A stretch of 64,000 nucleotides of DNA from Thermoguttaceae bacterium (GCA_963674835.2 CAXXKC010000003.1:1736842-1800841), one strand, 5' to 3'; positions 8,117 through 31,042 are shown, numbered from the stretch's first letter. Made by a program: numbers and translations. Notes: generated by a model from the sequence alone, not told the origin.

Positions 8117-11100
8117 TTATTTGCGGTTGGCGGTGTTGATGAATTGGCGATCGGCTTCGCTGAGTTTGTCTAGGGGAACGGAGATGACGGAGCCGTCGGG
8201 TTTTTCGAGACGGGCTTGGCCATTTTCGACCTTGAGGAGTCGCGCCTTGGTGTGGTGTTTGCCGGTATCGTCGGTCCATTCGCGCTCCGTTTTGGCGACC
8301 GGCGATGGCTTCTGACTCAGCGCGCCGGTGAGGACCTGGATGAACTGCTGGCTCATGTGTCCGTCGAATTGGATGTAGCCGTCGCGGTCGATGAGGACGT
8401 AGCGGGGAACGCCAGTGACGCCGTAATCGGAGGCGATCTTGGACTGCTGGCCAATGCGGAGCTGTTTCCAAGGGAGTCGGTACCTTGCCACATGCTGTTT
8501 CACGGGAAGGTCGCCGTCGTCGCAACTGAGGGCGATCATCTCGAAGTCGGGGTGTTTGCCGCGGGTGTCGACGTAGTTCTGTTTCAGGACTTCGGTGGAC
8601 GCAACGCATGGTTTGCACCACGTCGCCCAGAAGTAGAGGAGCAGCACCTTTCCTCGGTAGTCGTCGAGCCGGAGCTTTGTGCCATCGAGGGCGGTCGCTT
8701 GGAAGCCGGGGGCCTTCGTTCCCAGTTTGTCGGAGTGATTCGATTTGGCGAGGACGCGCTGGTCGTTGAGGTTGAGCAGACACAGGCTCGGCAGTTCTTT
8801 GTGGAGGATTTCGCCGGTGTTCGGGCTGAGTCTTTCGGTTGACTCGATCCGCAACACCTCGAGTGCCTGGAGTGCCTTCAGGTGAGCCAGTCCCGTATCG
8901 GAGAAGCGGCCTCGCACCCAGAGGTTGTTCACGTTCTTGAGGCCGGTCAGGCTCGCCAAGCCGGCATCGGTCATCTTGGGTCCGCCGATGGTCAAGCGTT
9001 GCAGTGACGTGAGGCGAGAGAGATGGGCAATGCCTTCGTCGCCGATCTGCGAGCGGTAGGTGGTGAGTAGGCATTCGAGGTGTTTGAGGTTGCCGAGGCT
9101 GGCAAGATCGACGTCGCGGGCTCCGTCGAGCGTCAATTCGCGGAGCTCAGCCAGAGTGGAGAGGTCCAGGGGGGGCTCGTCGGAATGAGGCGTGTTCTCA
9201 AGCCGGAGATTGAGGACGCGAAGATCCGATAGACCGTTGAGGTGCCGTGCACCAGGCGTGGAGAACCCGTTCTCACGCGGCAACTCGAGCGATTTGAGCT
9301 TCTTCAACGCGGCCAGCGACGCCAGGCCGGCATCGGTCATTCGGGGCACCATGGCCACGCCGAGCGTGGCGAGGTTCTGCAGCTGTCCGATGTAGGCCAT
9401 TCCGGCGTCGGTAATGCGAGTTCCTCCGATACTGAGACTCTCCAGGTGCTTGAGACGCGCGAGATGCTTCACGCCTTCGTCGGTAATCGGACTGCTGGAA
9501 TAGCATCCGATCCACAGGTGCTTGAGATTGGGCAGCCGCGATACATACTCGCAGCATTCGTCGGTCATGTCGAAGTTCGGCAGGTCGAGATACTCAAGCG
9601 ACGGAATCTCGGCGAGCTGCGCCACGCCTCGGGCGGTCACGAGGGGCTTGCCGGGGGTCGACATCACTCTGACGTTGAGGCGTTTCAGGTTGGGCAACGC
9701 CTTGAGATGAACCAGGCCCGCATCGGAGATTCCGGTATGCCAGAGGTCGACGTATTCGAGCGACTTCATGTCTGTGAGGTGGCGGAGGCCGGCATCGGTC
9801 ACGTTCGCGCCCGGAATGCGAAGGCCTTTGAGCGCCTTGGCGGCTTTGAGGGCAGCCAAGTGTTCGTCGGTGAATTCTCTGCTGCTCCAGATGTACATCA
9901 GGGACGGAAGCTGCGCGATGCGAGCCAACGCGGCCGGCGGGACGGACGGGGCGCCGAATACGAATTCGCGGAGCGACTTCAGGTTCGTCAGATGGGTGAG
10001 GCCGGCAGCGTCGCACTGGCCGGTCACCCCCAGCGACAGTGATTCGAGCGACTTCAGTTGCCCGAGGGATTTCAGACCGTTGGCTCCGATGTTGGGCGTG
10101 TTCAGTTCGAGCACCTTCAGCGATTGCAGGGGTTCGAGCGAGCGCAGACCGCGATCGGTCACCTGAGTAACCCGGAGCCCGAGCTCTTCGAGGCCCGTGA
10201 ATCGGCTGAAATGCTGGATCTGGGCATCGCCGAACGGAGCGCCACCCCATTCTGAGCCGAGGACCTCCACGGTATGCAGAGCGTTGGGGTCAAGCCGGGT
10301 GGTCCAGGACATGTCCTGGGCGCCCGGGGCGTTCAGATTGAGTTTCACCTTGGCGGCGGCGGGAACCTTGACGGTACCACGGGCCTGGCCAAGGCAGATC
10401 CAATCCCAATGCGGATGGTAATCGATGGCACGGCGTGCCGTCATCCAGGACGATTCTTCCGCCGTGGCGATCCAGAGTTTTCCGACGGAGTGGTCCGCGG
10501 GAAACGGAATGACCCGCGAATCTCCTTCGGACGATGCCTGGGTATCGGCAAGGACGACTTGGAATGCGACCAGCCCGACAAGCGCGAAGATCCCGACCAC
10601 GACGGAGCTGCAGACCCGTTTGCGACTCAAGGGAACAAACAGGAGGCCTCGCTTGAGTCGCGCCAATCGCGCGATCACTTCGGGTGAACGGGCCATGGGA
10701 ATGGCGGCAGTGGCGGGCGGGATCCGATAGGCCGAAAGCGCCACGCGGGCCAGGGCGGCGGAGTATTGTTGTGCGTCGCCCACAAGGCGAGCCGCGTTGG
10801 TGTCTGCCACTTCCTCACAAGCCGTCGCGTGGGCTCTGCCGATTCTCCATGCCAGGGGATGCATCCAACATGCGATTCCGGTCCACTGGATGAGCGCCAT
10901 CCAAGCAAGATCCCGCGAGCGGTGATGCGACAACTCGTGTGCGAGGATTCCGGGGAGTTCCCCCGCGTAGGCCGCGCCGCACATCGACGTAGGAAGAACG
11001 ACGACGCGGCGCCAGATGCCTGCCACGAAGGGAACGTCGAGATTGTCGGCCTTGAGCAGGTGGAAGACCCCCGAAACGCCCATCTGGGCCGCGACTTGTT

Positions 11101-11653
11101 TCGCAAGTCTCCGGCAAGAAGCCGGTGCTTTTCGGCAATGGGAAAGCTCTCGTCGGAGGACGGTCTGAGAGAAGACCCAGCGTATCGACAGAACCATCAG
11201 GCCCACGAGCCATCCTGCCAAGAGGATGGCCCAGGGGCCGGGCATCGCCCAGTGTGCGGGTGGCGTCGAAGGTGCGGCGGCGGTATCTGTCGGGGACGGC
11301 TCGGGCAACGAGTCGACCATCCAAAGGAGATTGTCTGCACCGGGAGCGGGATCCGATAGGTCGACTGTCGGCGGGTCGATGGGAAGCAGAGGATCGGCGG
11401 CCGGCGCCAACGCAGCGGTTTGAGTCGTGCTCGCCTGGATCGTGAGCGGGACTCTGGGTATCGAGCATACCAACACGGGAACGAGCGCGACGCCCACGGC
11501 CGTGCATCGCCACAGGAGCACTCGCCAACGCGGATTGCTTCGGACCAGCACCAAGTGGAGAATCCACCCGATTGCCAGGACCAGTGTGACTCGCAACGCG
11601 GTATCGCCCAGCGGGGATAGACCGACGAGCATTTCAGGCCAGTTTGCGTTCAT
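8117..11653 (-). CDS. BlaR1/M56-family signal-transducing metalloprotease fused to LRR array, TlpA-like thioredoxin domain and SHD1-like domain
   Basis: 1178-aa ORF. N-terminal TM helices and a HELSHHRSRD zinc motif (peptidase M56). A long run of about 24-aa leucine-rich repeats follows (for example LKSLESLSLGVT, LKGLRIPGANVTDAGLRHL). Then a redoxin fold with YFWATWCKPC. The C-terminal TDDTGKHHTKARLLKVENGQARLEKPDGSVISVPLDKLSEADRQFI is SHD1-like. Confidence 0.8.
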   Translation of the reverse strand: MNANWPEMLVGLSPLGDTALRVTLVLAIGWILHLVLVRSNPRWRVLLWRCTAVGVALVPVLVCSIPRVPLTIQASTTQTAALAPAADPLLPIDPPTVDLSDPAPGADNLLWMVDSLPEPSPTDTAAAPSTPPAHWAMPGPWAILLAGWLVGLMVLSIRWVFSQTVLRRELSHCRKAPASCRRLAKQVAAQMGVSGVFHLLKADNLDVPFVAGIWRRVVVLPTSMCGAAYAGELPGILAHELSHHRSRDLAWMALIQWTGIACWMHPLAWRIGRAHATACEEVADTNAARLVGDAQQYSAALARVALSAYRIPPATAAIPMARSPEVIARLARLKRGLLFVPLSRKRVCSSVVVGIFALVGLVAFQVVLADTQASSEGDSRVIPFPADHSVGKLWIATAEESSWMTARRAIDYHPHWDWICLGQARGTVKVPAAAKVKLNLNAPGAQDMSWTTRLDPNALHTVEVLGSEWGGAPFGDAQIQHFSRFTGLEELGLRVTQVTDRGLRSLEPLQSLKVLELNTPNIGANGLKSLGQLKSLESLSLGVTGQCDAAGLTHLTNLKSLREFVFGAPSVPPAALARIAQLPSLMYIWSSREFTDEHLAALKAAKALKGLRIPGANVTDAGLRHLTDMKSLEYVDLWHTGISDAGLVHLKALPNLKRLNVRVMSTPGKPLVTARGVAQLAEIPSLEYLDLPNFDMTDECCEYVSRLPNLKHLWIGCYSSSPITDEGVKHLARLKHLESLSIGGTRITDAGMAYIGQLQNLATLGVAMVPRMTDAGLASLAALKKLKSLELPRENGFSTPGARHLNGLSDLRVLNLRLENTPHSDEPPLDLSTLAELRELTLDGARDVDLASLGNLKHLECLLTTYRSQIGDEGIAHLSRLTSLQRLTIGGPKMTDAGLASLTGLKNVNNLWVRGRFSDTGLAHLKALQALEVLRIESTERLSPNTGEILHKELPSLCLLNLNDQRVLAKSNHSDKLGTKAPGFQATALDGTKLRLDDYRGKVLLLYFWATWCKPCVASTEVLKQNYVDTRGKHPDFEMIALSCDDGDLPVKQHVARYRLPWKQLRIGQQSKIASDYGVTGVPRYVLIDRDGYIQFDGHMSQQFIQVLTGALSQKPSPVAKTEREWTDDTGKHHTKARLLKVENGQARLEKPDGSVISVPLDKLSEADRQFINTANRK

Positions 11654-15174: not shown

Positions 15175-16311
15175 TCATGCGCCCGCGGTTTCGTCGGCTG
15201 GGAGGGAGATCGTGAACGTGGTCCCGGCATCCAGGCGGCTTTCGACGTTGACGGTGCCGTGGTAGAGTTGCACGAGCTTCTTGACGAGCGAAAGGCCCAG
15301 TCCGCTGCCGAGGATGTGGTTGGTCCGCTCGTTCTTGATGCGGACGAACTCCTTGAAGATCTGCACCTGCTCTTCGGGCGACATTCCGATCCCGGTATCG
15401 GCGACGGCCACGACGACCTGTGAATTGTCGAATTTCAGGGCCACATCGACGCTGCCGCCGTCGCGGTTGTACTTGACCGCGTTGGAGATCAAGTTGTTCA
15501 GCAACATGGCGATTTCGTCGGCATCGGCCGTCATGGAGACGGGCCCGACGGAATTGATGCGAAGGGCGATGTTTCGGGCCTCGGCCTCGGGCTGGACCGT
15601 TTCCACAGCCGTGTTGGCGACGGCGAGGAGATCGACCTGGGCGAAGTTGCGGCCCTTGTGACCGGATTCGATTTGCGTGAGGTCGAGCAGATCGCGGATC
15701 AGTTTGTACATGCCGTCGACGCGAGCGAGGCTGCGGTCGATCATTTCGTCGTAGGACGCCAGGTCATCGCCCCGCTGTCGCTTCTTCATGAGCTGAAGAT
15801 ATCCGGCGATGGCGTTCAAGGGGGACTTCAGCTCGTGCCCCAGCACGCGGACGAACTCGAAGCGTACGCGTTGTTTTTCCTCGGCCAGTTTGCGTGCGCG
15901 CCGGGCGATGATGAGGCGGGCGGCTGTCTTACGGATCGTGCTCTTCAGCTCGTCAGGCGTGAACGGTTTGGCGAGGAAGTCGTAGGCACCCTGCTTAGTC
16001 GCGGCGACGGCGGTTTCGATCGAGGCGTAGGCCGTGATCATGATGGTGAGCATGTCGGTCTTCGTGCCAGAAAGCTCGTGAAGCACGTCCATCCCGCTGA
16101 TCCCGGGCATCTTGTGGTCGAGGAGCAAGATGTCGGGTGCCTGGCGATGGATCTTCTCGAGGGCTTCCTCGCCGGACTCGGCGTGATCGATGGAGAATCG
16201 CACGTCTTCATCGACGTCGGGGACGTGCACGACAAAGTCGCGCAAGGTGCGGAGCACGCCCATCCGCATACCCATCTCGTCGTCGGTCACCAGCAGGTTG
16301 AGTGTCTCCAT
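15175..16311 (-). CDS. Hybrid receiver-histidine kinase (REC-HisKA-HATPase)
   Basis: Trimmed to METLNLLVTDDE; this ATG 16311 lies 1 nt after the upstream gene's stop. REC motifs DILLLDHKMPGISG and FLAKPF. H-box LGHELKSPLNAIAGY. ATPase blocks NLISNAVKYN, DTGIGM and GSGLGLSL. Confidence 0.85.
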   Translation of the reverse strand: METLNLLVTDDEMGMRMGVLRTLRDFVVHVPDVDEDVRFSIDHAESGEEALEKIHRQAPDILLLDHKMPGISGMDVLHELSGTKTDMLTIMITAYASIETAVAATKQGAYDFLAKPFTPDELKSTIRKTAARLIIARRARKLAEEKQRVRFEFVRVLGHELKSPLNAIAGYLQLMKKRQRGDDLASYDEMIDRSLARVDGMYKLIRDLLDLTQIESGHKGRNFAQVDLLAVANTAVETVQPEAEARNIALRINSVGPVSMTADADEIAMLLNNLISNAVKYNRDGGSVDVALKFDNSQVVVAVADTGIGMSPEEQVQIFKEFVRIKNERTNHILGSGLGLSLVKKLVQLYHGTVNVESRLDAGTTFTISLPADETAGA

Positions 16312-16312
16312 G

Positions 16313-16717
16313 CTACTGCTTCCTTGCGGCCAGCAGGCGTTCGATCTCGCCACGAAGCTGCTCGAAACGAATGGGCTTGGGGAGCAGAGCGTCGGCCTTG
16401 ATCCAGCCGCGATCTGCTTCGGTGGCGATGTCGAAGTCGAGACCCGTTTCGCTATTGACGGAACTGACGACGATCACGGGGATGGAGGGGTCGTGCTTGC
16501 GGATATGATGGCAGAGGACGAAGCCAGCATCGGGGTTTTCCATCATGACGTCGAGGACGGCCACGTCGGGACGGCGCTCGGCAAGAAGCTCTTCGGCGTG
16601 ACGCTGCCCTTGGGCGACAAGGACGTCGAAGCCGGCGTCTTCGAGTTGCATCCGTTGTTGGAAGAGAAAATCTTCGTCGTCGTCGACCAGCAGTATCAGG
16701 GGTCTATCGGGAGTCAT
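16313..16717 (-). CDS. Single-domain response regulator (CheY-like receiver)
   Basis: MTPDRPLILLVDDDEDF..DVAVLDVMMENPDAGF..LPKPI. Start ATG 16717 is preceded by AGGAGA. There is no output domain. Confidence 0.85.
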   Translation of the reverse strand: MTPDRPLILLVDDDEDFLFQQRMQLEDAGFDVLVAQGQRHAEELLAERRPDVAVLDVMMENPDAGFVLCHHIRKHDPSIPVIVVSSVNSETGLDFDIATEADRGWIKADALLPKPIRFEQLRGEIERLLAARKQ

Positions 16718-16765: not shown

Positions 16766-18823
16766 TCATTCTCCCATTCGCGGCAGCACCACGGTGAACG
16801 TCGAGCCGGTTGGTCCGAGGGCCGGATCGGCCTGCGATTCCACGCGGATATCGCCGGAGTGCATTTTGACGATGCCGTAGCTGACGGCGAGCCCCAGTCC
16901 CGTGCCTTTGCCGATCTGCTTGGTCGTGAAGAAGGGGTCGAAGATCTTCTTGATGTTCTCCGGCGGGATGCCGACGCCCGTATCGCTGACCGACACGCGC
17001 ACGCGCGAGTCGTCGCCATCGGTGCGAATGGTCAGCTCGCCACCGTTTTCCATGGCCGCGACGGCGTTGCTCACCAGGTTGGTTAGGACCTGGACGATCT
17101 GGTCTCGATCGACTTCGGCGATGGGATCGTCGGTGGCGTGTTCGACGCGGAGGGTGATGGATTCGGGCACAGTGAGCGCCCGCATGGTGCGCTGGACGAC
17201 CTGGCGAATATCGACGGGCGTGCGGCAGACCTTGTTCTGGCGGGCGAAGTGCAACAGGCCGGCGACGATCTTCTTGCAGCGATCGGCCTGTTCGGCGATC
17301 ATCGAGAGGTCATCGCGGAGCTTGGAATCGTTGTCGCATTCCTCCAGGAGGAGATGGGCGTACATCAGGACGACACCCAGCGGGTTGTTCACTTCGTGGG
17401 CGATGCCCGCGGCGAGTTGGCCCATGCCGGCGAGTTTTTCCGACTGGAGGAGTGCTTCCTGGGCGGCGGCGAGTTGTTTGTGGGATAGCTTGAGGTCGGT
17501 GAGCGCGACTCGGAGCTGGTCGATGGTGTTGGGCAGGCACATTTCGCTCTCGGCCAACTTCTTGTGGATGGCCACGGCGTGTTCGACGCAGGTATCGTAG
17601 CCGCAGGCGCCGCAGTTGAGTTCGTCGGCGAGCGAGAACTTGCCCATCTGATGCATGATGGCTGTTAGTTCGCTGCGGTTCGGCGCGGCGATGCGTTGAT
17701 CGTCGGCATGATAGGTGCGGCACAAATCGAGATCGGCAAGGCGGTCCATGGAATCACGCCACACGTCCTTGTCGAGGTCCTCCATGCGATGGCAGACGTA
17801 GGTGCGGACGTGGCGGCGTCGGTTGAACAACGGTAAATCGCCTTCGATGCCGGGCCCCATGATGCAACCATCGCAGCAGAGGGCTTCGAGGAGCCGGCAA
17901 CTGAGGTCGCCTTCGGCAAACTCCTTGACCGCCTCGAGCATGTGGCGCCGGCCCTGCGAGGCGATGATTTCGCCGGTGAGGAGGTCTTCGTGGATGTCGG
18001 CCGCCTGAAGGATTCCGCGGCTTACGGGGAACAGGCCCCCGATGCCGCCATGGGGCGGATCGAAGTCGCCGGCCTGGACCGATTCGGGGGTGATGCCCGC
18101 GTCGGTGAACATTCGGCGGAGTTCGGGGAACATGAGCACAGCGTCGACCTGACCGGCCATTTCCGCGCTCTGAGCCTCGACCTTCTTGGCGATGCAGGGA
18201 CCGATGAAGACGACTTTCAGGTCATCGCCATAGATGCGTCGAATGGCGCGAGTCATGGCGACCATCGGCGAGACAATCGGCGCGAGACGTTCGACCATGT
18301 CGGGATAGTACCGCTCGATGTAGCAAACGACCGCGGGGCAGGTGGTGGAGATGTAACGGCGCTGCTGGTCGCGGGTCAGCAGGTTGCGGTACTCACGGGC
18401 CACGAGATCGGCTCCGAAAGCGACCTCGACGACGAGCTGGAAACCTAGCGCGCGAATCATGCCGACCAATTGCGTGAAGGCCATTTCGGTGAATTCGGCG
18501 GGAAAGCTGGGCGCCACGCACGCGGCCACGCGGTTGCCGGATTGGAGCAGCGCTTGGACGTCATCAATACTGCTGCGAAGGACTTTGGCGTGCTGTGAAC
18601 ATACGCGGGTGCAGTTGCCACAAGCGATGCAGCGCTCGCCGACGACCTGGGCCTGGCCCTCGTTAATGCGGATCGCCTTGACGGGGCATTCGCGCACGCA
18701 CGTGTAGCACATGCGGCAGCGTTCTTTGACGGTGGTGATGAAGGCCGAACTCACGCGGATGCCTTTCTTTTCGTACCGTAGTGACCTGCGCCTCGGCTCG
18801 TTGACCTTTGCAGAGTCCCACAA
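16766..18823 (-). CDS. HydS-type (putative sensory) [FeFe]-hydrogenase-like domain fused to a histidine kinase
   Basis: Ferredoxin motifs CRMCYTCVRECP and CIACGNCTRVC. H-cluster-domain blocks STTCPAVV (L1-like, first Cys position is Thr), GPCIAKKVE (L2) and CCDGCIMGPG (L3-like). An exact Cx2Cx4Cx16C (CGACGYDTCVEHAVAIHKKLAESEMC). H-box IAHEVNNPL. ATPase blocks NLVSNAV, DTGVGI and GTGLGL. The start is uncertain: TTG 18823 or GTG 18754. Confidence 0.8.
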   Translation of the reverse strand: MWDSAKVNEPRRRSLRYEKKGIRVSSAFITTVKERCRMCYTCVRECPVKAIRINEGQAQVVGERCIACGNCTRVCSQHAKVLRSSIDDVQALLQSGNRVAACVAPSFPAEFTEMAFTQLVGMIRALGFQLVVEVAFGADLVAREYRNLLTRDQQRRYISTTCPAVVCYIERYYPDMVERLAPIVSPMVAMTRAIRRIYGDDLKVVFIGPCIAKKVEAQSAEMAGQVDAVLMFPELRRMFTDAGITPESVQAGDFDPPHGGIGGLFPVSRGILQAADIHEDLLTGEIIASQGRRHMLEAVKEFAEGDLSCRLLEALCCDGCIMGPGIEGDLPLFNRRRHVRTYVCHRMEDLDKDVWRDSMDRLADLDLCRTYHADDQRIAAPNRSELTAIMHQMGKFSLADELNCGACGYDTCVEHAVAIHKKLAESEMCLPNTIDQLRVALTDLKLSHKQLAAAQEALLQSEKLAGMGQLAAGIAHEVNNPLGVVLMYAHLLLEECDNDSKLRDDLSMIAEQADRCKKIVAGLLHFARQNKVCRTPVDIRQVVQRTMRALTVPESITLRVEHATDDPIAEVDRDQIVQVLTNLVSNAVAAMENGGELTIRTDGDDSRVRVSVSDTGVGIPPENIKKIFDPFFTTKQIGKGTGLGLAVSYGIVKMHSGDIRVESQADPALGPTGSTFTVVLPRMGE

Positions 18824-18924: not shown

Positions 18925-20646
18925 TCAGGTAACCACCCCGCGTTCGGTATAGTGGGTGTGGAGGAGATGGTGGCTCGTTTCCCCCAGTGGTTTGCCGAGG
19001 AATTCGGCATACAGTCGTCGGATCGATTCGTTGTGATGCGAGGTGCGAACCGGCTCGTTGGCGTCGATGGTGTAGAGGCTTTGCATTCGTGCCCGAACGG
19101 CGTCGAGATTGGCACCGATGGGCTGTCCACCGCCGTTGATGCACCCGCCGGGACAGGTCATGACTTCGATGAAATGGAGGTCGTCTCGGCCGGCACGTAC
19201 CTGATCGAGCAGGCGGGCAGCGTTGCCGAGACCGCTGACGACGGCGACGCCGAGCGTGAGATCGCCGATCGGCACGTGGGCCTCTTTGACGCCGTCGAGG
19301 CCGCGGACCGCCTGGACTTCGAGATCGCCCAACTCGCTACCGGTCACGAGGTAATAGGCCGTGCGGATGGCGGCCTCCATGACGCCGCCGCTGGCGCCGA
19401 AGAGTTTGCCGGCGGTGGTACGCTGGCCGAAGGGCGTGTCGGCCGTATCGGGCGGGAGATCGCGGAGATTGAGCCCAGCCATGCGAATGAGCGAGGCCAG
19501 TTCGCGCGTGGTGAGGACGGCGTCGACGTCGGCCACGCCGCCGCGTCCCATTTCCGGGCGCCCGGCTTCGAATTTCTTCGCGGTGCAGGGCATGATGCTG
19601 ACGCTGTAGATACGGGCGGGATCCAATCCCTCGCGTTGGGCAAAGTAGGTCTTGATGATGGCCCCCATCATCTGCTGGGGGCTCTTGCACGTAGAGAGGT
19701 TGCCCATGAAGTCGGGATACTGCGTTTCAACGAACTTGATCCAGCCGGGCGAGCAGCTGGTGAGCATGGGCAGCCGGCCGCCGCTGGTCAGCCGATGGAC
19801 CAGTTCGGAGCCCTCCTCCATGATGGTCAGATCGGCGGTGAAGCCGGTATCGAAGACGCGGTCGAAACCGAGTCGCCGCAGCGCGGCGGTCATGACGCCG
19901 ATTACGTCGGTACCCGGCGCTATGCCGAACTCCTCGCCGAGTGTGACAGAGACGGCGGGGGCGTGCTGTGCGACGACGATCTTGTTCGGATCGTTCAAGG
20001 CATCGAGCACCTCTTTGATCTGACTCTGTTCGGACAAGGCACCGGTGGGGCAGACGGCGATGCACTGTCCGCAGTTGATGCAACTGGAAACGTTGAGGCC
20101 TTCGTCGAAGGCGGTGCCAATTTTAGTTCTGGAGCCGCGGCCGATGAAGTCGATGGCCGCCACCCGCTGGACTTCCTCGCATACGCGGACGCACTTGCCG
20201 CAGAGGATGCACTTGGCGGGATCACGCACGATGGAGGGGCTGGAGGCGTCGATATGGTGGCGAGTGCGGTCACCGGCGAATCGTCGCTGGCGGACGCCCA
20301 GCTCTTCGGCCAGATCCTGCAGGCGGCAGTTGCCGTTGCGGTTGCAGTAGAGGCAATCGTCGGGGTGATTGGCCAGCAGCAGTTCGACGATCGTTTTTCG
20401 CGACTGCACGGCCCGCGGCGAGTGGGTGCGGACCTTCATGCCTTCGGCAACGGGAAAGGCACAGCTCGGCACGAGGCCGCGCTGGCCCTCGATCTCGACG
20501 ACACAGATGCGGCAGGCGCCGGTGGGGCTGAGCCCGTCGACGTGGCACAACGTGGGGACGCGGATTCCGGCCCTTCGCAGCGCGGTAAGGAGCATCTCAC
20601 CCTTTTCGGCGGCGATCGTTTGCCCATTGACTTCGATGTTGATCAT
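18925..20646 (-). CDS. hydA: [FeFe]-hydrogenase catalytic subunit HydA (multi-cluster, NuoG-like N-terminus)
   Basis: N-terminal 2Fe-2S and His-ligated cluster motifs (CRICVVEI, HPDDCLYCNRNGNC). Two ferredoxin motifs (CILCGKCVRVC, CINCGQCIAVCP). H-cluster blocks TSCSPGW (L1 variant), MPCTAKKFE (L2) and EVMTCPGGCINGGGQP (L3). Confidence 0.9.
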   Translation of the reverse strand: MINIEVNGQTIAAEKGEMLLTALRRAGIRVPTLCHVDGLSPTGACRICVVEIEGQRGLVPSCAFPVAEGMKVRTHSPRAVQSRKTIVELLLANHPDDCLYCNRNGNCRLQDLAEELGVRQRRFAGDRTRHHIDASSPSIVRDPAKCILCGKCVRVCEEVQRVAAIDFIGRGSRTKIGTAFDEGLNVSSCINCGQCIAVCPTGALSEQSQIKEVLDALNDPNKIVVAQHAPAVSVTLGEEFGIAPGTDVIGVMTAALRRLGFDRVFDTGFTADLTIMEEGSELVHRLTSGGRLPMLTSCSPGWIKFVETQYPDFMGNLSTCKSPQQMMGAIIKTYFAQREGLDPARIYSVSIMPCTAKKFEAGRPEMGRGGVADVDAVLTTRELASLIRMAGLNLRDLPPDTADTPFGQRTTAGKLFGASGGVMEAAIRTAYYLVTGSELGDLEVQAVRGLDGVKEAHVPIGDLTLGVAVVSGLGNAARLLDQVRAGRDDLHFIEVMTCPGGCINGGGQPIGANLDAVRARMQSLYTIDANEPVRTSHHNESIRRLYAEFLGKPLGETSHHLLHTHYTERGVVT

Positions 20647-20747: not shown

Positions 20748-22691
20748 CTAGTGTTTGACAACGGCGTCGAAGCGGCAGGCATCGATGCACGAGCCGCAAC
20801 CAATACATTTCTCTACGACGATGTGGTGAGGCGACTTGGCTGCGCCGACGATGGCCTCGGCCGGGCACTTCTTGACGCAGAGCGTGCAGCCGCGACATTT
20901 CTCCGGGTCGATCGAGTAGGTGACCAGTTCGGTGCAGACGGCCGCCGGGCAGGTGCGCTCGTAGATGTGGGATTCGTACTCGTCGCGGAACCACCGCAAC
21001 GTGCTGAGGACGGGATTGGGCGCGGTCTGGCCGAGCCCGCAGAGACTGGTGTCGCGAATGGTCTCGGCCAGGCTTTGCAGATGGAGGACGCTCTTGAATC
21101 GCTCGAGGGCGTCGATGCCTCGTTCCTTCTTCCGGCCCCGCGTAATGCGCTGGAGGATTTCCAGCATTCGTCGAGTGCCTTCGCGACAGGGGATGCACTT
21201 TCCGCAGCTTTCGCGTTGAATGAAGTCCATGAAGAACTTGGCCACGTCGACCATGCAGGTGTCTTCGTCCATGACGACGAGCCCGCCCGAGCCCATGATG
21301 GCGCCGACGGTCTTCAAGGATTCGTAGTCGACGTCGATATCGAGATGCTGGGCGGGGATGCAGCCGCCAGACGGGCCGCCGATTTGCACGGCCTTGTAGG
21401 TCTTGCCATTGGGGATGCCGCCGCCGATGTCGAAGACGATCTTGCGGATGGGCGTGCCCATGGCCACTTCGACGAGACCGGTGTGGGAGACCTTGCCCGA
21501 GAGGGCGAAGACCTTGGTGCCCTTGCTGGTCTTGGTTCCGAGGGCGCTGAAGCCGTCGGCCCCGATGGACATGACAGTGGGCAAGTTGGCCAGGGTTTCG
21601 ACGTTGTTGATGATTGTCGGCTTGCCGAAGAGTCCACTGACGGCGGGAAAGGGCGGGCGGGGGCGCGGCATGCCGCGACGACCTTCAATGCTGTGGATCA
21701 GGGCGGTTTCCTCGCCGCACACGAACGCGCCCGCGCCCATTTTGATGATGACGTGCAGACTGAAGTCGGTACCGAGAATGCTGTCGCCGAGAAGGTGGTT
21801 GGCCTCGGCCTGAGCAATGGCGGCCTTCAGTCGCTTGATGGCCAGCGGGTACTCGGCACGGATGTAGACGTAGGCCTTCGTGGCACCGATACCGTAGGCG
21901 GCAATGGCCATGCCTTCGACCAGCCGATGCGGATCGCTCTCGATCACGGCGCGATCCATGAAGGCGCCGGGATCGCCTTCGTCGGCGTTGCAGATGAGGT
22001 ATTTCTGATCGCCGGGCGACTGGCGGGCGAACTTCCATTTCCTACCGGTGGGAAAGCCGCCGCCACCCCGGCCGCGAAGGCCGCTTCGTTCGACAATGTC
22101 GCAGACGGCATCGGGCGTCGTTCCGTGGAGCGTGGCGACCAGGGCCTTGTAACCGCCGCGAGCAATGTACTCCTCGATTTGCGAGGGATCGATGAGACCG
22201 CAGTTGGCCAGCACCCAACGGGTTTGCGGAGCGAAGAAGGGATGTTCGTCCAAGAAGGGCACATCGGGCCAGGCAGGGACCGTATCGCTGCGATGCTGGC
22301 CGAGAACCAGGTCGTCGGGGGCCGCACTGGAGAGCGCTTCGTCGAGCAGGCGAGCAACCTTATCGGCAGTGATCTGCTTGTAGCACACGCGGGCGTGGCC
22401 GGGGAGTTGCACTTCGACGATCGGCTCGAGCGAACAGATGCCGATGCAGCCGACCATTACGACGTCGGCCTTGATTTCGTGGGTATCGAGGTACTGGTGA
22501 ATGGCGGCGAGGGTGTCGCGGGCGCCGGCGCCGAGTCCGCAGGTGCCGGCGCCGACGAAGATAGCGGGGCGAGGGACGTCGTCGCGGCGCAAATCGGCGA
22601 GCCGGCGGTGGCGTTGCTGGCGGGTGACCTCGTCGGCGGCCTCGCCGTTGACGGTCCAGGAGAGTAGCTCAGGCAGCTTCATCGCTGTCAT
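20748..22691 (-). CDS. hydB: NuoF-like flavoprotein subunit HydB of bifurcating-type hydrogenase
   Basis: GRGGGGFPTGRKWKF (FMN/NADH site) and ESCGKCIPCREG (N3-type cluster). C-terminal CRGCTLCVKKCP and CIGCGSCIDAC. Thioredoxin-like N-terminal domain. Confidence 0.9.
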   Translation of the reverse strand: MTAMKLPELLSWTVNGEAADEVTRQQRHRRLADLRRDDVPRPAIFVGAGTCGLGAGARDTLAAIHQYLDTHEIKADVVMVGCIGICSLEPIVEVQLPGHARVCYKQITADKVARLLDEALSSAAPDDLVLGQHRSDTVPAWPDVPFLDEHPFFAPQTRWVLANCGLIDPSQIEEYIARGGYKALVATLHGTTPDAVCDIVERSGLRGRGGGGFPTGRKWKFARQSPGDQKYLICNADEGDPGAFMDRAVIESDPHRLVEGMAIAAYGIGATKAYVYIRAEYPLAIKRLKAAIAQAEANHLLGDSILGTDFSLHVIIKMGAGAFVCGEETALIHSIEGRRGMPRPRPPFPAVSGLFGKPTIINNVETLANLPTVMSIGADGFSALGTKTSKGTKVFALSGKVSHTGLVEVAMGTPIRKIVFDIGGGIPNGKTYKAVQIGGPSGGCIPAQHLDIDVDYESLKTVGAIMGSGGLVVMDEDTCMVDVAKFFMDFIQRESCGKCIPCREGTRRMLEILQRITRGRKKERGIDALERFKSVLHLQSLAETIRDTSLCGLGQTAPNPVLSTLRWFRDEYESHIYERTCPAAVCTELVTYSIDPEKCRGCTLCVKKCPAEAIVGAAKSPHHIVVEKCIGCGSCIDACRFDAVVKH

Positions 22692-23160
22692 GACGCGAGT
22701 CCTTCTTGCGGTAGGAGTCGATGATTTTGGCCACGGATTTCGTCGTCACGCCGGCGTGGAAGTTGCCGTTGATGGAAATGACCGGCGCCAATCCGCAGGC
22801 GCCGATGCAGGCCACGACCTCCAGGCTGAACTGGCCGTCGCGGGTGGTTTGGCCCGGCTCGATCTTCAATTCCCGCTTGATCGCCTCCAGGATGGCAGCC
22901 GAGCCTTTGACGTGGCAGGCGGTGCCGCGGCAGACCTGGATGTGGTTGCGGCCCTGGGGCTGGAAGCGGAACTGGTTGTAGAAGGTGGCGACGCCGTAGA
23001 TTTTGCTGGCGGGAAGATTCAGGCGTTCTCCGATCCGCACGACGGCGTCTCGGGACAAGTAGCCGAACTCCTGCTGTACGTCCTGCAAGATGGGGATCAG
23101 GGCATCACGCGAAGCGTTGGGATATCGGTCAAGCAGTGTACCTAGTTCGTTTGTTGCCAC
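22669..23160 (-). CDS. hydC: NuoE-like 2Fe-2S subunit HydC
   Basis: ORF 22669..23604, trimmed to GTG 23160, which is preceded by GAGGAG. The upstream extension is Pro/Arg-rich noise. Motifs: VCRGTACHVKG...ACIGACGLAP. Overlaps the hydB start by 23 nt. Confidence 0.85.
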   Translation of the reverse strand: MATNELGTLLDRYPNASRDALIPILQDVQQEFGYLSRDAVVRIGERLNLPASKIYGVATFYNQFRFQPQGRNHIQVCRGTACHVKGSAAILEAIKRELKIEPGQTTRDGQFSLEVVACIGACGLAPVISINGNFHAGVTTKSVAKIIDSYRKKDSRHDSDEAA

Positions 23161-23214: not shown

Positions 23215-23229
23215 GCAAACGACGTGCCG
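23215..23229 (-). promoter_or_regulatory. Sigma-54 (-24/-12) promoter for hydCBA
   Basis: The minus strand reads C-GGCACG-TCGT-TTGC-C, matching TGGCACG-N4-TTGC at every position except the first T. The -12 GC lies about 55 nt upstream of the hydC GTG. Confidence 0.65.
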
Positions 23230-23418: not shown

Positions 23419-23444
23419 TGTATGATTTTGGTATACAGTGTATG
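23419..23444 (-). promoter_or_regulatory. Putative enhancer (UAS) site, copy 1
   Basis: The minus strand reads CATACA-c-TGTATA-ccaaaat-CATACA. This is the same 26-nt architecture as 25195..25220. It lies about 190 nt upstream of the hydC sigma-54 promoter and just upstream of the DHp/ntrC-like operon. Confidence 0.5.
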
Positions 23445-23464
23445 GAACGCGAAGGGTTCTGGAG

Positions 23465-23740
23465 ATGCCTACAACTGACGAGAATTCACCGCTGGGTTCG
23501 GAATCGCAGCGGTGCAACGCAGGTAGCGAGCGGCTGCTGGAGATCGGGCGATTCGCCGGCGACGTGGCCCACAAGATCAACAACCACCTGACCACAATTC
23601 TCACGTTCTCTCATCTGATGCGAGAGAAGTCGAACCTGGACGCGCAGGATCGCGAGGATCTGGATCTGATCATCCGGGAGGCGACGAACGCGGCGGCCCT
23701 TGCCCGCAATCTGCAAGACCGGGGTGCCGTGAATGAGTAG
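23465..23740 (+). CDS. Stand-alone histidine-kinase DHp (H-box) domain protein, no sensor or ATPase domain
   Basis: SERLLEIGRFAGDVAHKINNHLTTILTFSHLMREK..REDLDLIIREA aligns along both helices with the DHp of the HydS-kinase ([46 protein letters not shown]). About 91 aa from ATG 23465 (AAGGG 8 nt upstream); GTG 23438 is the alternative start. Its stop overlaps the next gene's ATG (ATGAGTAG). Confidence 0.6.
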   Translation: MPTTDENSPLGSESQRCNAGSERLLEIGRFAGDVAHKINNHLTTILTFSHLMREKSNLDAQDREDLDLIIREATNAAALARNLQDRGAVNE

Positions 23741-25160
23741 AGATGCGGCCAAACGGGAGATCGCGGAAGCGGCTCTGCGGATTCTCGTGATCGACGACGA
23801 TCCGGGAATTGGGCTGAGCTGCCAGAGGACCCTGGAGTCGGAAGGGCACGAGGTTCGGCATTGCCTAGTGCCGGAGGTCGGTCTGCAGGCCGCGTTGACG
23901 GGCGATTTTGACATTATTCTGCTGGACTTGCAGATGCCCGGGCTGAACGGGCTGGAGATTCTGCGCGAGCTGAAGTCGGCGGCTGTGCCTTCGGAAGTGA
24001 TCATGATCACGGGCCATGCGACCGTTGAATCGGCGGTCGAAGCGATGAAGCAAGGTGCGCAGGACTTTGTGAGCAAGCCGTTCTCGCCGGATCAGTTGAA
24101 GATGGCCGTCCGCCGGGCCGCGGAACACTCGCGGCTGATCAGCGAGAATGTGGCGCTGCGGCAGGAGCTGGAGATTCACCAGGGTTTTGAGGGGATCATC
24201 GGCGAAAGCCGGCCGATGGAGCGGGTTTTCGCCCTGGCGCGGCGCGTGGCGCCGACTGAGGGAACGGTGCTGCTGATCGGCGAAAGCGGCACGGGAAAAG
24301 AGGTGTTCGTGCGGGCGATTCACCGGCTGAGCCGGCGCAACGACCACCCGCTTCTGGCGTGCGACTGCAGCGCACTGGCGCCGACGCTGCTGGAGAGCGA
24401 GCTGTTCGGCCATATGAAAGGCTCGTTCAGCGGAGCCATCGTGACGAAGCAGGGGCTGTTCGAGGCGGCGCACGGCGGCACGCTTTTTCTGGATGAAATT
24501 GGCAATTTGAGCATGGAAATCCAGGGGAAACTGCTGCGGGTGCTCGAAACGAAGCGGGTAAAAAAGGTGGGCGACACGGCGGAGCGCGAGGTGGATATCC
24601 GCCTGATCTCGGCCACGAACCGCGACTTGATCGAGATGGTTCGCGAGGGGGATTTTCGAGAGGACCTGTACTATCGACTGAACGTCGTTCCCGTCTATTT
24701 GCCGCCGCTTCGGGAGCGGTCGGGCGATATCCCCCTTCTGGCGATATCCTTCCTCGACCGGTTCTGTAAGAAGAACCACGCGGCCGTGAAGGGTTTTTCG
24801 CCCGATGCGATGAGCTTGATGGAAGGGTACGCGTGGCCGGGCAACGTCCGCGAACTGCGGAACATCGTGGAGCGGCTGGCCATTCTGTGCGATCACGAGC
24901 GGATCGAGCCGCGCCATCTTCCGGCCGAGATTCGCCAAGCCCAGGTGGGCATCACGCCGGGGACGCCGCTGCCGCGCACGTGGGAGGAGTTCAAGCGGTT
25001 GAAGCAACAGATCCGCGAGTCGACCGTACAGCAATTGGAGCGGCGGTTTCTGGTCGCCTCGTTGGAGCGTTGCGAGGGCAACGTGAGCCGCACCGCCGAA
25101 GAGATCGGCATCCAGCGGACCAATCTGCATGCCCTAATGCGGAAACACGGCCTGACCTAG
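23733..25160 (+). CDS. NtrC-family sigma-54-dependent response regulator (REC-AAA+-Fis HTH)
   Basis: REC (ILVIDDDPG..IILLDLQMPGLNG..FVSKPF). AAA+ Walker A GESGTGKE. ESELFGHMKGSFSGA is a GAFTGA-loop variant. GNVRELRN is present. C-terminal HTH SRTAEEIGIQRTNLHALMRKHGL. Confidence 0.9.
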   Translation: MSRDAAKREIAEAALRILVIDDDPGIGLSCQRTLESEGHEVRHCLVPEVGLQAALTGDFDIILLDLQMPGLNGLEILRELKSAAVPSEVIMITGHATVESAVEAMKQGAQDFVSKPFSPDQLKMAVRRAAEHSRLISENVALRQELEIHQGFEGIIGESRPMERVFALARRVAPTEGTVLLIGESGTGKEVFVRAIHRLSRRNDHPLLACDCSALAPTLLESELFGHMKGSFSGAIVTKQGLFEAAHGGTLFLDEIGNLSMEIQGKLLRVLETKRVKKVGDTAEREVDIRLISATNRDLIEMVREGDFREDLYYRLNVVPVYLPPLRERSGDIPLLAISFLDRFCKKNHAAVKGFSPDAMSLMEGYAWPGNVRELRNIVERLAILCDHERIEPRHLPAEIRQAQVGITPGTPLPRTWEEFKRLKQQIRESTVQQLERRFLVASLERCEGNVSRTAEEIGIQRTNLHALMRKHGLT

Positions 25161-25194: not shown

Positions 25195-25220
25195 CATACA
25201 GTGTATGTTCGCTGCATACA
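25195..25220 (+). promoter_or_regulatory. Putative enhancer (UAS) site, copy 2
   Basis: CATACA-g-TGTATG-ttcgctg-CATACA, with a perfect 13-bp palindrome CATACAgTGTATG. It lies 119 nt upstream of the GG of the 25338 sigma-54 promoter. Confidence 0.5.
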
Positions 25221-25337: not shown

Positions 25338-25352
25338 TGGCACGCGTGTTGC
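25338..25352 (+). promoter_or_regulatory. Sigma-54 (-24/-12) promoter for the REC-GcvH-like/hdr/flx operon
   Basis: TGGCACG-CGTG-TTGC is a full match to TGGCACG-N4-TTGC. It lies 84 nt upstream of ATG 25436. Confidence 0.75.
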
Positions 25353-25435: not shown

Positions 25436-27004
25436 ATGCCAAACGAACCAGCACTGTTGGTCGTGGATGACGAAGATGCAATCTGCGAGGGCTGCCGACG
25501 CATCTTCTCCCGCCAGGGCTTCGACGTGCAGAAATGCAGCGACGCGAACCAGGGCTTGAGTCTGGCAGCCCGTGGCGATTACGCCGCGATCTTGTTGGAT
25601 GTGAAGATGCCGGAGATGGATGGCCTCCATTTCCTCGAAGCGCTGCGCAAGGACCAGCCGACGGTGCCGGTGATCTTGATGACCGGTTACCCGAGCATCC
25701 CGAACGCGGCCTCGGCCATTCGATTGGGCGCATCGGACTATGTGACGAAGCCATTTACGCCGGACGAGATCACGCAGGCCGTTCACCGCCTGTTGCACAC
25801 GAGCCAGAACCCGGCGGCGACAGCGACGATCAGCGAGCCGCCCGCGCCGGATGCTCCGCTGCATTTCTTCCGCGACGCCTGGTATCAGACGAACCGCGAA
25901 GGCATCGCGAGAGTGGGCGCGGTCGTGGTACGGCGGGGCGCGGCGAAGATTCAGTCGCTGCGTTTGCCGAAGATCGGCGAAGTCGTGTATCAGGGGCTGC
26001 CGCTGGCGGTGGTAACGATCGCCGGTCAGCCGCCGCGTACGATCTCTGCACCGCTTTCGGGCGTTGTCGTGGCCGTGAACGACGCGTTGGCCAGCGACGC
26101 GGCGCCGGTGCTCGATGAGCCGTGTGGAAAGGGCTGGCTCGCCTGCATCTGTCCGACACGACTCGAGGAGGAATCGACGCGATGCCCGTTGCGGCGCGTC
26201 CTCCTGTTGAGCCAAGACGACGAGGCAGCCCGGCAGCAGACGGAACGTCTGTGTGCGCTGGGGTGCGAGGTGCGCCGGCTCAGCGATCCGAAGGAATTGA
26301 CCGAAGTTCAACGCGGCTTCGACTCGAACCTGCTGCTGGTCGACGCCAAGACTCTGGGAACGGAAGGGCCGGGCATGGTCGGCGCGCTGAACGCGGCCGA
26401 TCCCGCGTTGAAGATCGTCGTACTGGCGTCGGCCGACTCCGTATTGGAGCCCGCCTATCGCACGCGGCGGATCTTCTACTATGCCGTCGAGCCGTTTGCC
26501 GACAACGAGATCGCGGACATCATCGCCGGCGCTTGCCAGGCGCCGCCGAGTACGCAGCCGGGTACGCGCCGAGAGCAGGCGCAGACGCTGGGCTGCATCT
26601 TCATCACCAACCGGAATCGGACACGCGTGCGGCTGATCGCGGCACCGGGGCTGCTGCGACGCGAGGACGGCTTGGGCCTGCTGCTGCGGCAGAGGCTGAT
26701 GGAGCGACGTTTTCCGCTGGAGAGCTCACCGAGCGAAACGCCGATCACGCCCATGCACTTGCTCCGCGAAGCGTCTCACTGCGACCGGGTGATCGTGCTG
26801 TTGGCACAGGATCACGGTCGGCTGCCGGGGAGCCTGTCGCGCGACACGAAGGCGGAGTACATCGCGATGGTGGGTGCGGGCGCCGACAAGGTGACGACAT
26901 TCCTGCTGCAGCCGAGCGACGTGCCGGACGAGCCGATGGCGTTGGATCCACAGATTCTCGAGGCGCTGGCGGATCAGTTGTCGCACGAGATGGCATCCTG
27001 TTAG
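25436..27004 (+). CDS. Response-regulator receiver fused to a GcvH-like domain (no lipoyl lysine), a pseudo-receiver and an unknown C-terminal region
   Basis: ORF 25337..27004, trimmed to ATG 25436 (GAGGGA upstream). REC: LLVVDDEDA..AILLDVKMPEMDG..VILMTGY..YVTKPF. GcvH-like: SAPLSGVVVAVNDALASDAAPVLDEPCGKGW, compare E. coli GcvH [30 protein letters not shown]. The ESVK lysine position reads TIAGQ here. The second REC-like block (LLLVDAK..KIVVLASAD..YYAVEPF) lacks the conserved Lys. Confidence 0.7.
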   Translation: MPNEPALLVVDDEDAICEGCRRIFSRQGFDVQKCSDANQGLSLAARGDYAAILLDVKMPEMDGLHFLEALRKDQPTVPVILMTGYPSIPNAASAIRLGASDYVTKPFTPDEITQAVHRLLHTSQNPAATATISEPPAPDAPLHFFRDAWYQTNREGIARVGAVVVRRGAAKIQSLRLPKIGEVVYQGLPLAVVTIAGQPPRTISAPLSGVVVAVNDALASDAAPVLDEPCGKGWLACICPTRLEEESTRCPLRRVLLLSQDDEAARQQTERLCALGCEVRRLSDPKELTEVQRGFDSNLLLVDAKTLGTEGPGMVGALNAADPALKIVVLASADSVLEPAYRTRRIFYYAVEPFADNEIADIIAGACQAPPSTQPGTRREQAQTLGCIFITNRNRTRVRLIAAPGLLRREDGLGLLLRQRLMERRFPLESSPSETPITPMHLLREASHCDRVIVLLAQDHGRLPGSLSRDTKAEYIAMVGAGADKVTTFLLQPSDVPDEPMALDPQILEALADQLSHEMASC

Positions 27005-27023
27005 CAGACTGTCGAGGTCGCCC

Positions 27024-27575
27024 GTGTCCACTACCACCGCTAGCATGCCCAAGGGCTTCGAACGCCTGAAGGTGACCGACTGTTACCAATGCGGCAAGTG
27101 TTCGGCCGGCTGTCCGATGTCGGAACACATGGACTTGCTGCCGAACCAGTTGGTTCGCCTGGTTCAGCTTGGCCGCCTGGAGCGAGCGATGATGTGTGAG
27201 GCGATCTGGAAATGCGTGTCGTGCATGACCTGCACGACGCGGTGCCCGAAGTCGGTCGATTGCGCCGGTGTGATGGACGCCCTGCGACAGGCGGCGGTTC
27301 AGCAGGGGAAGGTTCCGGAGGAACGGCGGCGAACCGTCTGCTTCCAACAGGCCTTTCTGGACAACATCCGCCGCAACGGCCGGCTTTGCGAGCTGGAGCT
27401 GATCGGTGTGTTCAAGACGAGGGCGTTCTTCAGGGACCACAGCGTTTCGCTGTTACTGAAGGACGCGATGTTGGCACCGCAGTTGATCCTGCGCCGGAAG
27501 TTCCACATCCGTGGTGAGCGAGCGAAAGACCGCGGAGTCGTGCAACGGATCTTTGAGAGGTGCGAGCGACGATGA
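27024..27575 (+). CDS. hdrC: Heterodisulfide reductase subunit C
   Basis: CYQCGKCSAGCP and CVSCMTCTTRCP motifs, about 183 aa. Start is GTG 27024, with ATG 27045 as the alternative. Confidence 0.85.
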   Translation: MSTTTASMPKGFERLKVTDCYQCGKCSAGCPMSEHMDLLPNQLVRLVQLGRLERAMMCEAIWKCVSCMTCTTRCPKSVDCAGVMDALRQAAVQQGKVPEERRRTVCFQQAFLDNIRRNGRLCELELIGVFKTRAFFRDHSVSLLLKDAMLAPQLILRRKFHIRGERAKDRGVVQRIFERCERR

Positions 27576-27648
27576 AACGGCGACCGCCGGTCGCGTTGTG
27601 CGCGGCGCGAGTGCCGGCCGTGGCATTGCAACGAGGAGACCTTCCACC

Positions 27649-28491: not shown

Positions 28492-28498
28492 TCAGAGC

Positions 28499-30499: not shown

Positions 30500-30584
30500 A
30501 CGGTGGCGACGGAGAGCCTGGTCGAGGCAGGCCCCTGATGGGTCGTAGCTCGGGAAAAGGACGAGGTGACGAGGAGAGACCGCG

Positions 30585-31016: not shown

Positions 31017-31042
31017 CGTTAGAAACGTCAGGTGCGTGAAGC

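Follow-up and report, generated by a model that had tools for sequence, protein, structure and literature searches.

A gene on the minus strand of a 64,000-nucleotide stretch of Thermoguttaceae bacterium DNA (GCA_963674835.2, CAXXKC010000003.1:1736842-1800841; hereafter the window) encodes a sensory-type [FeFe]-hydrogenase module that runs directly into a histidine kinase (HK). The gene, designated hydS-HK, occupies 16766-18754 (-) and follows the hydrogenase genes hydCBA. Its product is probably a cytoplasmic, dimeric, H2-responsive sensor kinase with a HydS-type (group C) input module. We infer that H2 or redox state is the stimulus and that the signal is transmitted through a coiled-coil linker. 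The protein belongs to a kind that is known, abundant in public databases, and biochemically uncharacterised.

The minus-strand open reading frame (ORF) at 16766-18823 is open for 685 codons, the first of which is TTG at 18823. This earlier start, used in the initial annotation, was set aside, because homologues are 647-663 aa long and share the consensus N-terminus MxxAFITT. Translation most likely begins at GTG 18754, 69 nt downstream, which would give a protein of 662 aa. GTG 18754 is preceded by GAAAGG, the first 23 codons of the longer ORF are not conserved among homologues, and initiation at a later ATG would cost the first ferredoxin motif its first Cys. In the 685-aa translation, Pfam matches were obtained for Fer4 (aa 32-78), Fe_hyd_lg_C (aa 98-324, E = 8.6e-50), PF04060 FeS (aa 402-431), HisKA (aa 468-529, E = 2e-14), and HATPase_c (aa 572-682, E = 5.4e-27). 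The E-values are far beyond chance.

The protein starts with a ferredoxin domain (18587-18727, -; Pfam Fer4/Fer4_10) that carries two [4Fe-4S] motifs, CRMCYTCVRECP and CIACGNCTRVCS, with a conservation of at least 90% for their eight Cys. It is followed by the H-cluster domain (17852-18532, -), which is supported by Pfam Fe_hyd_lg_C, alignments to PDB entries, column statistics, and the AlphaFold2 (AF2) fold. A C-terminal accessory cluster with an exact Cx2Cx4Cx16C motif, CGACGYDTCVEHAVAIHKKLAESEMC, lies at 17537-17614 (-) and matches PF04060. A helical, coiled-coil linker (17399-17536, -) then leads to the HisKA/DHp domain (17237-17422, -), which has the H-box IAHEVNNPL and the phospho-acceptor His476 (685-aa numbering; codon 17396-17398). 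The HATPase_c domain (16778-17110, -) with boxes N, G1, F, and G2 completes the protein. The features read from the sequence in the initial annotation were thus recovered: both ferredoxin motifs, the blocks STTCPAV, GPCIAKKVE, CCDGCIMGPG, and IAHEVNNPL, the exact C-terminal cluster motif, and a coiled coil with a complete ATPase domain, the former being modelled as a helix with a periodicity of 3.3-3.5 residues. The AF2 model has a mean pLDDT of 80.7 and is confident for residues 1-410 and the ATPase domain. The H-domain scores above 80 and adopts the [FeFe]-hydrogenase fold. In Foldseek searches, the sensor part matched group A [FeFe]-hydrogenases only, and the kinase part matched ZraS. No group C or D structure was present among the PDB matches from either the sequence or the Foldseek searches.

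Active-site positions were read from HMMER alignments to the solved group A enzymes T. maritima HydA (TmHydA), T. kivui HydA1 (TkHydA1), and CpI, and are given in CpI numbering. The proton-relay residue Cys299 is Thr in hydS-HK (L1, STTCP), and the adjacent Cys300 is retained, in agreement with the initial annotation that the relay Cys is lost and the ligand Cys kept. Met353 is replaced by Gly (L2, GPCIAKKVE) and Met497 by Leu (L3, LCCDGC). Cys355, Cys499, Cys503, Lys358, and Glu361 are all unchanged. The APS motif and Ser319 are also retained; Glu279 and Glu282 are lost.

This pattern is shared by the family. A search with the sensor module alone (17504-18754) against 50%-identity representatives returned 966 relatives at E <= 1e-30, and the best 150 of these (proteins P0121-P0270) were used for column and output-domain counts. 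The four H-cluster ligand Cys are kept in 142-148 of the 150, Lys358 in 127, Glu361 in 141, and the APS motif in 121-140. Residues at position 299 are A, P, S, or T, with Cys confined to 10 representatives. Gly at position 353 (140/150) and Leu at position 497 (101/150) are the prevailing residues, the latter being the family norm. The Cx2Cx4Cx16C motif was matched in 130 representatives; the other 20, without a regular-expression match, are mostly fragments shorter than 490 aa. These frequencies agree with the residue statistics that were reported for sensory hydrogenases from HydDB (PMC10055695) and are in keeping with how the sensory subclasses M2f and M2e are defined (PMC8163306).

Group C enzymes are described as having lost the relay Cys299, having a small residue in place of Met353 (Gly in TmHydS), and carrying 2x[4Fe-4S] and Cx2Cx4Cx16C clusters (PMC8163306; PMC10055695). 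Since Cys299 is lost, Met353 is replaced by Gly, and both the N-terminal 2x[4Fe-4S] and the C-terminal Cx2Cx4Cx16C domains are present, the assignment of the input module to group C (HydS-type) sensory [FeFe]-hydrogenases, as first annotated, is supported at the sequence level. TmHydS (group C, M2f) has the same N-terminal 2x[4Fe-4S] domain, H-domain, and C-terminal Cx2Cx4Cx16C cluster, and likewise lacks Cys299 and has Gly for Met353. M2f genes often share an operon with a group A hydrogenase (PMC8163306), and hydCBA adjoins hydS-HK. In contrast, TmHydS terminates in PAS and lacks a kinase, whereas hydS-HK continues through a 47-aa coiled coil into HisKA/HATPase. The two proteins also differ at position 299 (Ala in TmHydS, Thr in hydS-HK) and position 497 (Ser and Leu, respectively). 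PAS-type representatives form a separate clade in a rough neighbour-joining tree, with approximately 37% identity to the hydS-HK sensor module.

The predicted output of hydS-HK is a complete HisKA/HATPase kinase without PAS. The boxes NLVSNA (N), DTGVGI (G1), FDPFFTTK (F), and GTGLGL (G2) are all present. No Pfam match to PAS was found after the C-terminal cluster in hydS-HK, and the last cluster Cys and the phospho-acceptor His are just 47 residues apart, leaving no room for such a domain. Thus, the annotated kinase output in place of PAS holds. The best PDB match of the kinase is ZraS, whose cytoplasmic domain is 33% identical over the DHp and CA core. The best NCBIfam matches are AtoS and ZraS, all under the equivalog cutoffs. 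Kinases of the NtrB/AtoS/ZraS family have the same type of H-box, HE(V/I)NNPL, and differ from hydS-HK in their input, which is a PAS or periplasmic sensor domain rather than a metallo-enzyme domain.

The linker is 47 aa long in 120 of 120 close homologues and in 74 of the 79 members measured in related loci, with the remaining five having 40 aa. More distant direct fusions have linkers of mostly 33, 40, 47, 54, or 68 aa, in steps of seven. Off-register lengths (27, 34, 38, 48, and 49 aa) are few and occur in members with more divergent linkers. Column-averaged hydropathy of the linker has a period of 3.3-3.5 residues (shuffle p ~0.03), and the segment is helical in the AF2 model. We read the linker as a continuous coiled coil that rigidly couples the C-terminal cluster domain to the DHp helix; because its length varies in heptad steps, signalling into the kinase through the coiled coil is suggested.

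The kinase-fused architecture is abundant and already catalogued. The best 120 homologues of hydS-HK are 65-81% identical, are mostly from metagenome-assembled genomes (MAGs) of Planctomycetota, and all have the same architecture. Many carry the JGI label 'iron only hydrogenase large subunit-like protein / signal transduction histidine kinase', and an identical protein is already deposited in NCBI/ENA. Relatives are encoded by 291 species-representative genomes. The best 80 loci from these genomes (labelled L002-L081) come from Planctomycetota, Marinimicrobia, KSB1, Calditrichota, Fermentibacterota, Bacteroidota, Elusimicrobiota, Myxococcota, Lentisphaerae, Verrucomicrobiota, and Spirochaetes. 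Members in other genomes are 48-76% identical to hydS-HK, and the nearest species-level relative, at 76%, is from a Thermoguttaceae MAG.

The outputs attached to the sensor module are diverse. Among the best 150 representatives, a kinase is fused directly in 40, a HydS-type PAS tail is present in approximately 39, a sigma54 AAA+ activator domain in 16, GGDEF in 4, and an MCP signalling domain in at least 2; the remainder include PAS-HK or GAF-HK outputs. Fusions to GAF-GAF-HK, to HisKA_3 kinases, and to sigma54 AAA+/HTH activators with or without PAS were also observed. Such a range of fused outputs (GGDEF, sigma54 activator, MCP, and PAS) is the behaviour of a signalling input domain. By its domain combinations, the HydS sensor module is a promiscuous input domain, for which HydDB names three output classes only.

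hydS-HK lies in a six-gene cassette, hydC-hydB-hydA-hydS/HK-REC-REC/HK. Upstream on the same strand are hydC (22669-23160, -; NuoE-like by Pfam; likely start GTG 23160 with the ribosome-binding site GAGGAG), hydB (20748-22691, -; NuoF-like by Pfam), and hydA (18925-20646, -), which was identified by Pfam and exceeds the cutoff of NCBIfam NF040763, 'NADH-dependent [FeFe] hydrogenase, group A6'. Judged from these matches, hydCBA encodes a trimeric NADH-linked or bifurcating [FeFe]-hydrogenase. Downstream, 48 nt after hydS-HK, is a gene for a single-domain response regulator (16313-16717, -; 134 aa; Pfam Response_reg) that consists of REC only and has the canonical DD...D...S...K residues. The gene for a second kinase, REC-HisKA-HATPase_c by Pfam (15175-16311, -; 378 aa), begins 1 nt after the REC gene, and both its receiver and its kinase residues are canonical.

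Synteny was assessed by tblastn with the window proteins, and the upstream side was scored only in loci with enough flank. As annotated, hydS-HK lies directly after hydCBA in the window; the hydC-hydB-hydA genes precede it on the same strand in 60 of 64 such loci. A single-domain REC followed by REC-HK lies downstream in 67 of 72 loci, and the cassette is conserved across more than 10 phyla. Since they are co-inherited with hydS-HK, REC and REC/HK are the most likely candidates for its phosphotransfer partners. Beyond the Thermoguttaceae-like loci, the cassette lacks a conserved DNA-binding regulator.

Several variations on the cassette were observed. The L1 motif of hydA in the window is TSCSPGW instead of TSCCPxW, so the [4Fe-4S]H ligand Cys300 is replaced by Ser and the relay Cys299 is kept. 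L1 motifs of the TSCSP type occur in 41 of 69 cassette HydAs across phyla and in the Spirochaeta thermophila A3 entry of HydDB; this variant was remarked once, in Melainabacteria (PMC3787301). Bacteroidota loci (L050, L056, L057, and L064-L067) have a second, divergently oriented HydS-like paralogue upstream of hydC, which is 34-44% identical over approximately 350-500 aa and lies on the minus strand at about 3.6-5.6 kb in locus coordinates. In two Myxococcota loci, L044 and L047, REC-HK comes directly after hydS-HK and the single-domain REC is lacking; hydCBA is on the other strand at a distance of about 4 kb, and a pair of a kinase and an NtrC-type protein is encoded upstream.

The closest published description is genomic. 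A 2024 study of Hydrogenedentota reported a C3 'BfuT' with a His-kinase domain downstream of bfuA (PMC11406978). The His-kinase BfuT is placed there in 'sub-type V' bfuCBA-T clusters of Hydrogenedentota, Caldithrix abyssi, and Bacteroidota, with WP_006928132.1 as the best HydDB match, and a second bfuT is described upstream in Bacteroidota. BfuT, as described there, matches hydS-HK in architecture and in lying downstream of the gene for hydrogenase subunit A; our related loci likewise include Calditrichota and Bacteroidota, the latter with a second divergent paralogue. hydS-HK differs in being a planctomycete orthologue. The paper is purely genomic, the term 'response regulator' occurs zero times in it, REC and REC-HK are undescribed, and, within the passages seen, nothing is said on linker periodicity or sigma54 wiring (PMC11406978). 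As the sole explicit description found, it bears out the annotated view that the kinase-linked form is predicted from genomes and not characterised. The characterised sensory-type enzymes found in the literature are TmHydS (PAS output) and TamHydS (no output domain) only. Because C3 members with a His-kinase domain are reported (PMC11406978), PAS is not defining for the whole of group C.

HydDB recognises three classes, all putative: C1 'histidine kinase-linked', C2 'chemotactic', and C3 'phosphatase-linked'. The C1 label was tried for hydS-HK and dropped, since the sole visible C1 entry of the HydDB dataset, from T. wiegelii, is an M2e protein without a fused kinase, which is 26% identical to the hydS-HK sensor module and branches outside all 117 relatives, and kinase-bearing forms are placed in C3 in PMC11406978. 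The nomenclature is not uniform: HydDB exemplifies C1 by the unfused M2e type, called 'group D' by Land et al., and the kinase-fused type is reported as HydDB C3. The M2e Thermoanaerobacter proteins (T. mathranii HydS and T. wiegelii WP_014062652) share the sensory-type H-domain and the Cx2Cx4Cx16C cluster with hydS-HK, and they are encoded beside kinase-like genes and a bifurcating hydrogenase. Their kinase is a separate gene, whereas it is fused in hydS-HK, and position 353 is Ser rather than Gly.

The closest functional analogue is the [NiFe] group 2b system (HoxBC-HoxJ-HoxA of Cupriavidus necator; HupUV-HupT-HupR), in which a crippled hydrogenase serves as an H2 gauge and acts through a histidine kinase on an NtrC-family regulator of hydrogenase genes. 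HoxA is a sigma54 activator. In HydDB, group 2b is described as an H2 sensor activating a two-component system. The likeness to hydS-HK is functional only: the metal centre and fold are unrelated ([NiFe] versus [FeFe]), and the sensor and kinase are separate proteins in group 2b and fused in hydS-HK.

In the Thermoguttaceae-like lineage, the cassette appears to be wired to a sigma54 circuit. An AtoC/NtrC-type sigma54 activator gene (REC-AAA+-HTH_8 by Pfam; best NCBIfam match AtoC) is located at 23733-25160 (+), divergent from the hyd operon, and is found at the equivalent place in L002, L004, and L018. A sigma54-type core, GGCAC-N5-TTGC, lies at 23215-23228 (-), approximately 55 nt upstream of the hydC start, and another at 25339-25352 (+), approximately 85 nt upstream of ATG 25436 of the REC-GcvH gene. 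The strict core has 4 matches in the window against 0.87 expected, two of them in these promoter positions. The other two exact matches, at 40893-40906 (-) and 42690-42703 (+), are inside ORFs and are probably due to chance. With a loose sigma54 consensus allowing 2 mismatches, no enrichment was seen in the window (30 matches against 28.5 expected), and it was the strict core, taken with its position and conservation, that proved informative. The element recurs at -53 and -56 before hydC in the two closest loci, L002 and L004, respectively, where the relaxed core GGCA[CT]-N5-TTGC matches twice only, at the two equivalent promoter places. An element equivalent to the REC-GcvH promoter is also present in L018.

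The two promoters share an 11-bp palindrome, ATACAGTGTAT, which is a candidate activator site. One copy is at 23433-23443, approximately 205 bp upstream of the hydC sigma54 promoter, and a second is at 25196-25206, approximately 135 bp upstream of the REC-GcvH promoter. It has 2 matches in the 64 kb against 0.15 expected and recurs in L002 (twice) and L004. Because conserved sigma54 promoters and the shared palindrome are found at both operons, there is good evidence in the DNA that the AtoC-like activator controls the hyd operon, sensor included, and the REC-GcvH/hdrCBA/mvhD operon; the latter thus appears to be co-regulated with the hydrogenase operon. The REC-GcvH operon (25436-32907, +) is headed by a receiver fused to a glycine-cleavage-H-like (lipoyl-carrier) domain and continues with HdrC-, HdrB-, and HdrA-like proteins, MvhD (FlpD), and two further Fe-S proteins. 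Rfam and tRNA scans of the window gave no matches, and sigma70 promoter and terminator scans were at background level.

A small ORF at 23438-23740 (+), with the H-box AHKINNHL, consists of DHp only (Pfam HisKA, 33.8 bits; cutoff 26.9). It encodes 91-100 aa, and its stop overlaps the start codon of the activator gene. Its product aligns to the DHp of a 641-aa HK encoded ahead of the activator in L004, and no kinase precedes the activator in L002. Two readings are offered for the ORF: a kinase remnant in decay, or a phosphotransferase or inhibitor made of DHp only.

A mechanism for hydS-HK can be proposed. Maturases encoded elsewhere in the genome would install the H-cluster on the four conserved Cys. 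Because the proton relay is absent (Thr299, Gly353, and Leu497 in place of Cys, Met, and Met), the site would bind and split H2 slowly and serve as a gauge, not as a catalyst; the analogy is to TmHydS and TamHydS, which bind an H-cluster, have low activity, and show a stabilised reduced state (PMC8163306; PMC10055695). A redox or conformational change would pass to the C-terminal Cx2Cx4Cx16C domain. The 47-residue coiled coil, which joins this domain to the phospho-acceptor helix in a fixed heptad phase, would then shift the kinase/phosphatase balance, and phosphoryl groups would pass to the co-inherited REC and receiver-kinase as a multi-step relay. The probable targets of regulation in the planctomycete lineage are the sensor's own hydCBA-hydS operon and the divergent REC-GcvH/hdrCBA/mvhD operon.

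Several points weigh against an H2-responsive kinase acting in this way. The literature search found no biochemical or other experimental paper on a kinase-fused member. Neither the hydEFG maturase genes, in Pfam scans of essentially all credible ORFs of the 64-kb window, nor rpoN are present within the window. For the linker and DHp, nothing can be read from the AF2 monomer, in which residues 424-465 have pLDDT below 50. Among the 56 loci searched, a sigma54 promoter upstream of hydC was found in L002 and L004 only, and the sigma54 wiring is therefore lineage-specific. In L004, the activator is accompanied by a 641-aa kinase of its own, which carries a sensor region at the N-terminus. Residues H+7, +8, +11, and +12 of the DHp, which we take to be partner-specificity positions, are G, V, M, and Y in hydS-HK and T, G, T, and F in the L004 kinase. 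Because this kinase differs at these residues, direct transfer from hydS-HK to the activator is uncertain; direct phosphorylation of the AtoC-like activator by hydS-HK was accordingly downgraded, given also the remnant in the window. Met497 -> Leu in CpI hampered [2Fe] incorporation (as cited in PMC10055695); on the other side, Leu is the family norm, and TamHydS carries Leu at 497 yet matures (PMC10055695). The C-terminal cluster of TamHydS remained unreduced under 1 atm H2 and had little effect on catalysis (PMC13104023). A model with cluster reduction as the signal is doubtful for this reason; by analogy, the signal in hydS-HK may be a conformational rather than a redox change of the C-terminal cluster.

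Three other explanations were weighed against an H2-responsive kinase. It is conceivable, though unlikely, that hydS-HK senses the cellular redox state and not H2, the N-terminal [4Fe-4S] pair trading electrons with ferredoxin or HydABC so that the kinase reports the reduction state of the pool and the H-cluster is merely a slow valve or reference electrode. The full conservation of the N-terminal 2x[4Fe-4S] domain is consistent with this, as are the importance of the TamHydS N-terminal clusters for activity and for reduction under H2 (PMC13104023) and the redox enzymes, HydABC and Hdr/MvhD-like proteins, of the neighbouring regulon. However, the family-wide conservation of the H-cluster ligands, Lys358, Glu361, and APS would be difficult to account for without a working [2Fe] site. 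The explanation also overlaps with H2 sensing, since HydABC couples H2 to the ferredoxin/NADH pool. Still less probable is a role of hydS-HK as a fourth structural subunit ('BfuT') that docks on HydABC as modulator or modulated, with the kinase and REC tuning enzyme activity, mainly post-translationally, and not transcription. The gene is immediately downstream of hydA on the same strand in the 60 of 64 loci given above, it is named as the T subunit in PMC11406978, and the cassette has no conserved DNA-binding regulator beyond the Thermoguttaceae-like loci. Nevertheless, solved HydABC complexes match the H-domain only, with no T-like subunit among the matches, and the full set of catalytic boxes and the co-inherited receivers are typical of a signalling pathway.

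The least probable of the three, which we regard as very improbable, is an H-domain without the [2Fe] subcluster, similar to Nar1/Narf, that serves as a generic Fe-S sensor of O2, NO, or iron. Leu at position 497, the same change that affected [2Fe] insertion in CpI, and the lack of maturase genes in the window speak for it. It is disfavoured because conservation extends to Lys358 and the APS motif, which make contact with the CN/CO ligands; moreover, the adjacent catalytic HydA requires HydEFG anyway, and TmHydS and TamHydS share these substitutions and still incorporate the H-cluster (PMC8163306; PMC10055695). An H2-responsive sensor kinase is the reading that we prefer.

A wider reading, which we put forward tentatively and hold to be somewhat improbable in its entirety, takes the six-gene cassette as a self-contained, horizontally mobile 'H2-stat' of more than 10 bacterial phyla. 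All its parts would have to hold together. The cassette HydA would carry the unusual TSCSP L1 motif. [quoted passage not shown] In Thermoguttaceae-like planctomycetes, the AtoC-like activator would co-regulate the hydrogenase and a Hdr/MvhD/GcvH-type electron-sink operon, and the DHp-only remnant might serve as a phosphotransferase in the wiring of the activator.

Elsewhere in the window, 8117-11653 (-) encodes a 1178-aa protein with a BlaR1-type M56 peptidase/sensor, leucine-rich repeats, and thioredoxin/redoxin and SHD1 domains.

For group C/D [FeFe]-hydrogenases, H2 sensing and the route by which the signal leaves the protein are still matters of inquiry, and the latest TamHydS study considered it critical to identify interaction partners if the signalling mechanism is to be clarified (PMC13104023). 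The kinase-fused form supplies the partner in cis, and autophosphorylation and phosphotransfer offer an easy quantitative read-out. The heptad-locked linker makes a specific, mutable prediction on signal transmission, and the conserved REC and REC-HK, the sigma54 promoters, and the palindrome are concrete downstream targets. The window member is not unique in this respect: many orthologues, such as that of the cultured Caldithrix abyssi, would serve equally for tests. Synthetic H2 biosensors are a further use to which an H2-responsive kinase would lend itself. If the 'H2-stat' reading is true, the cassette would amount to a two-component H2 signalling pathway based on [FeFe], the first to be defined with its regulon identified.

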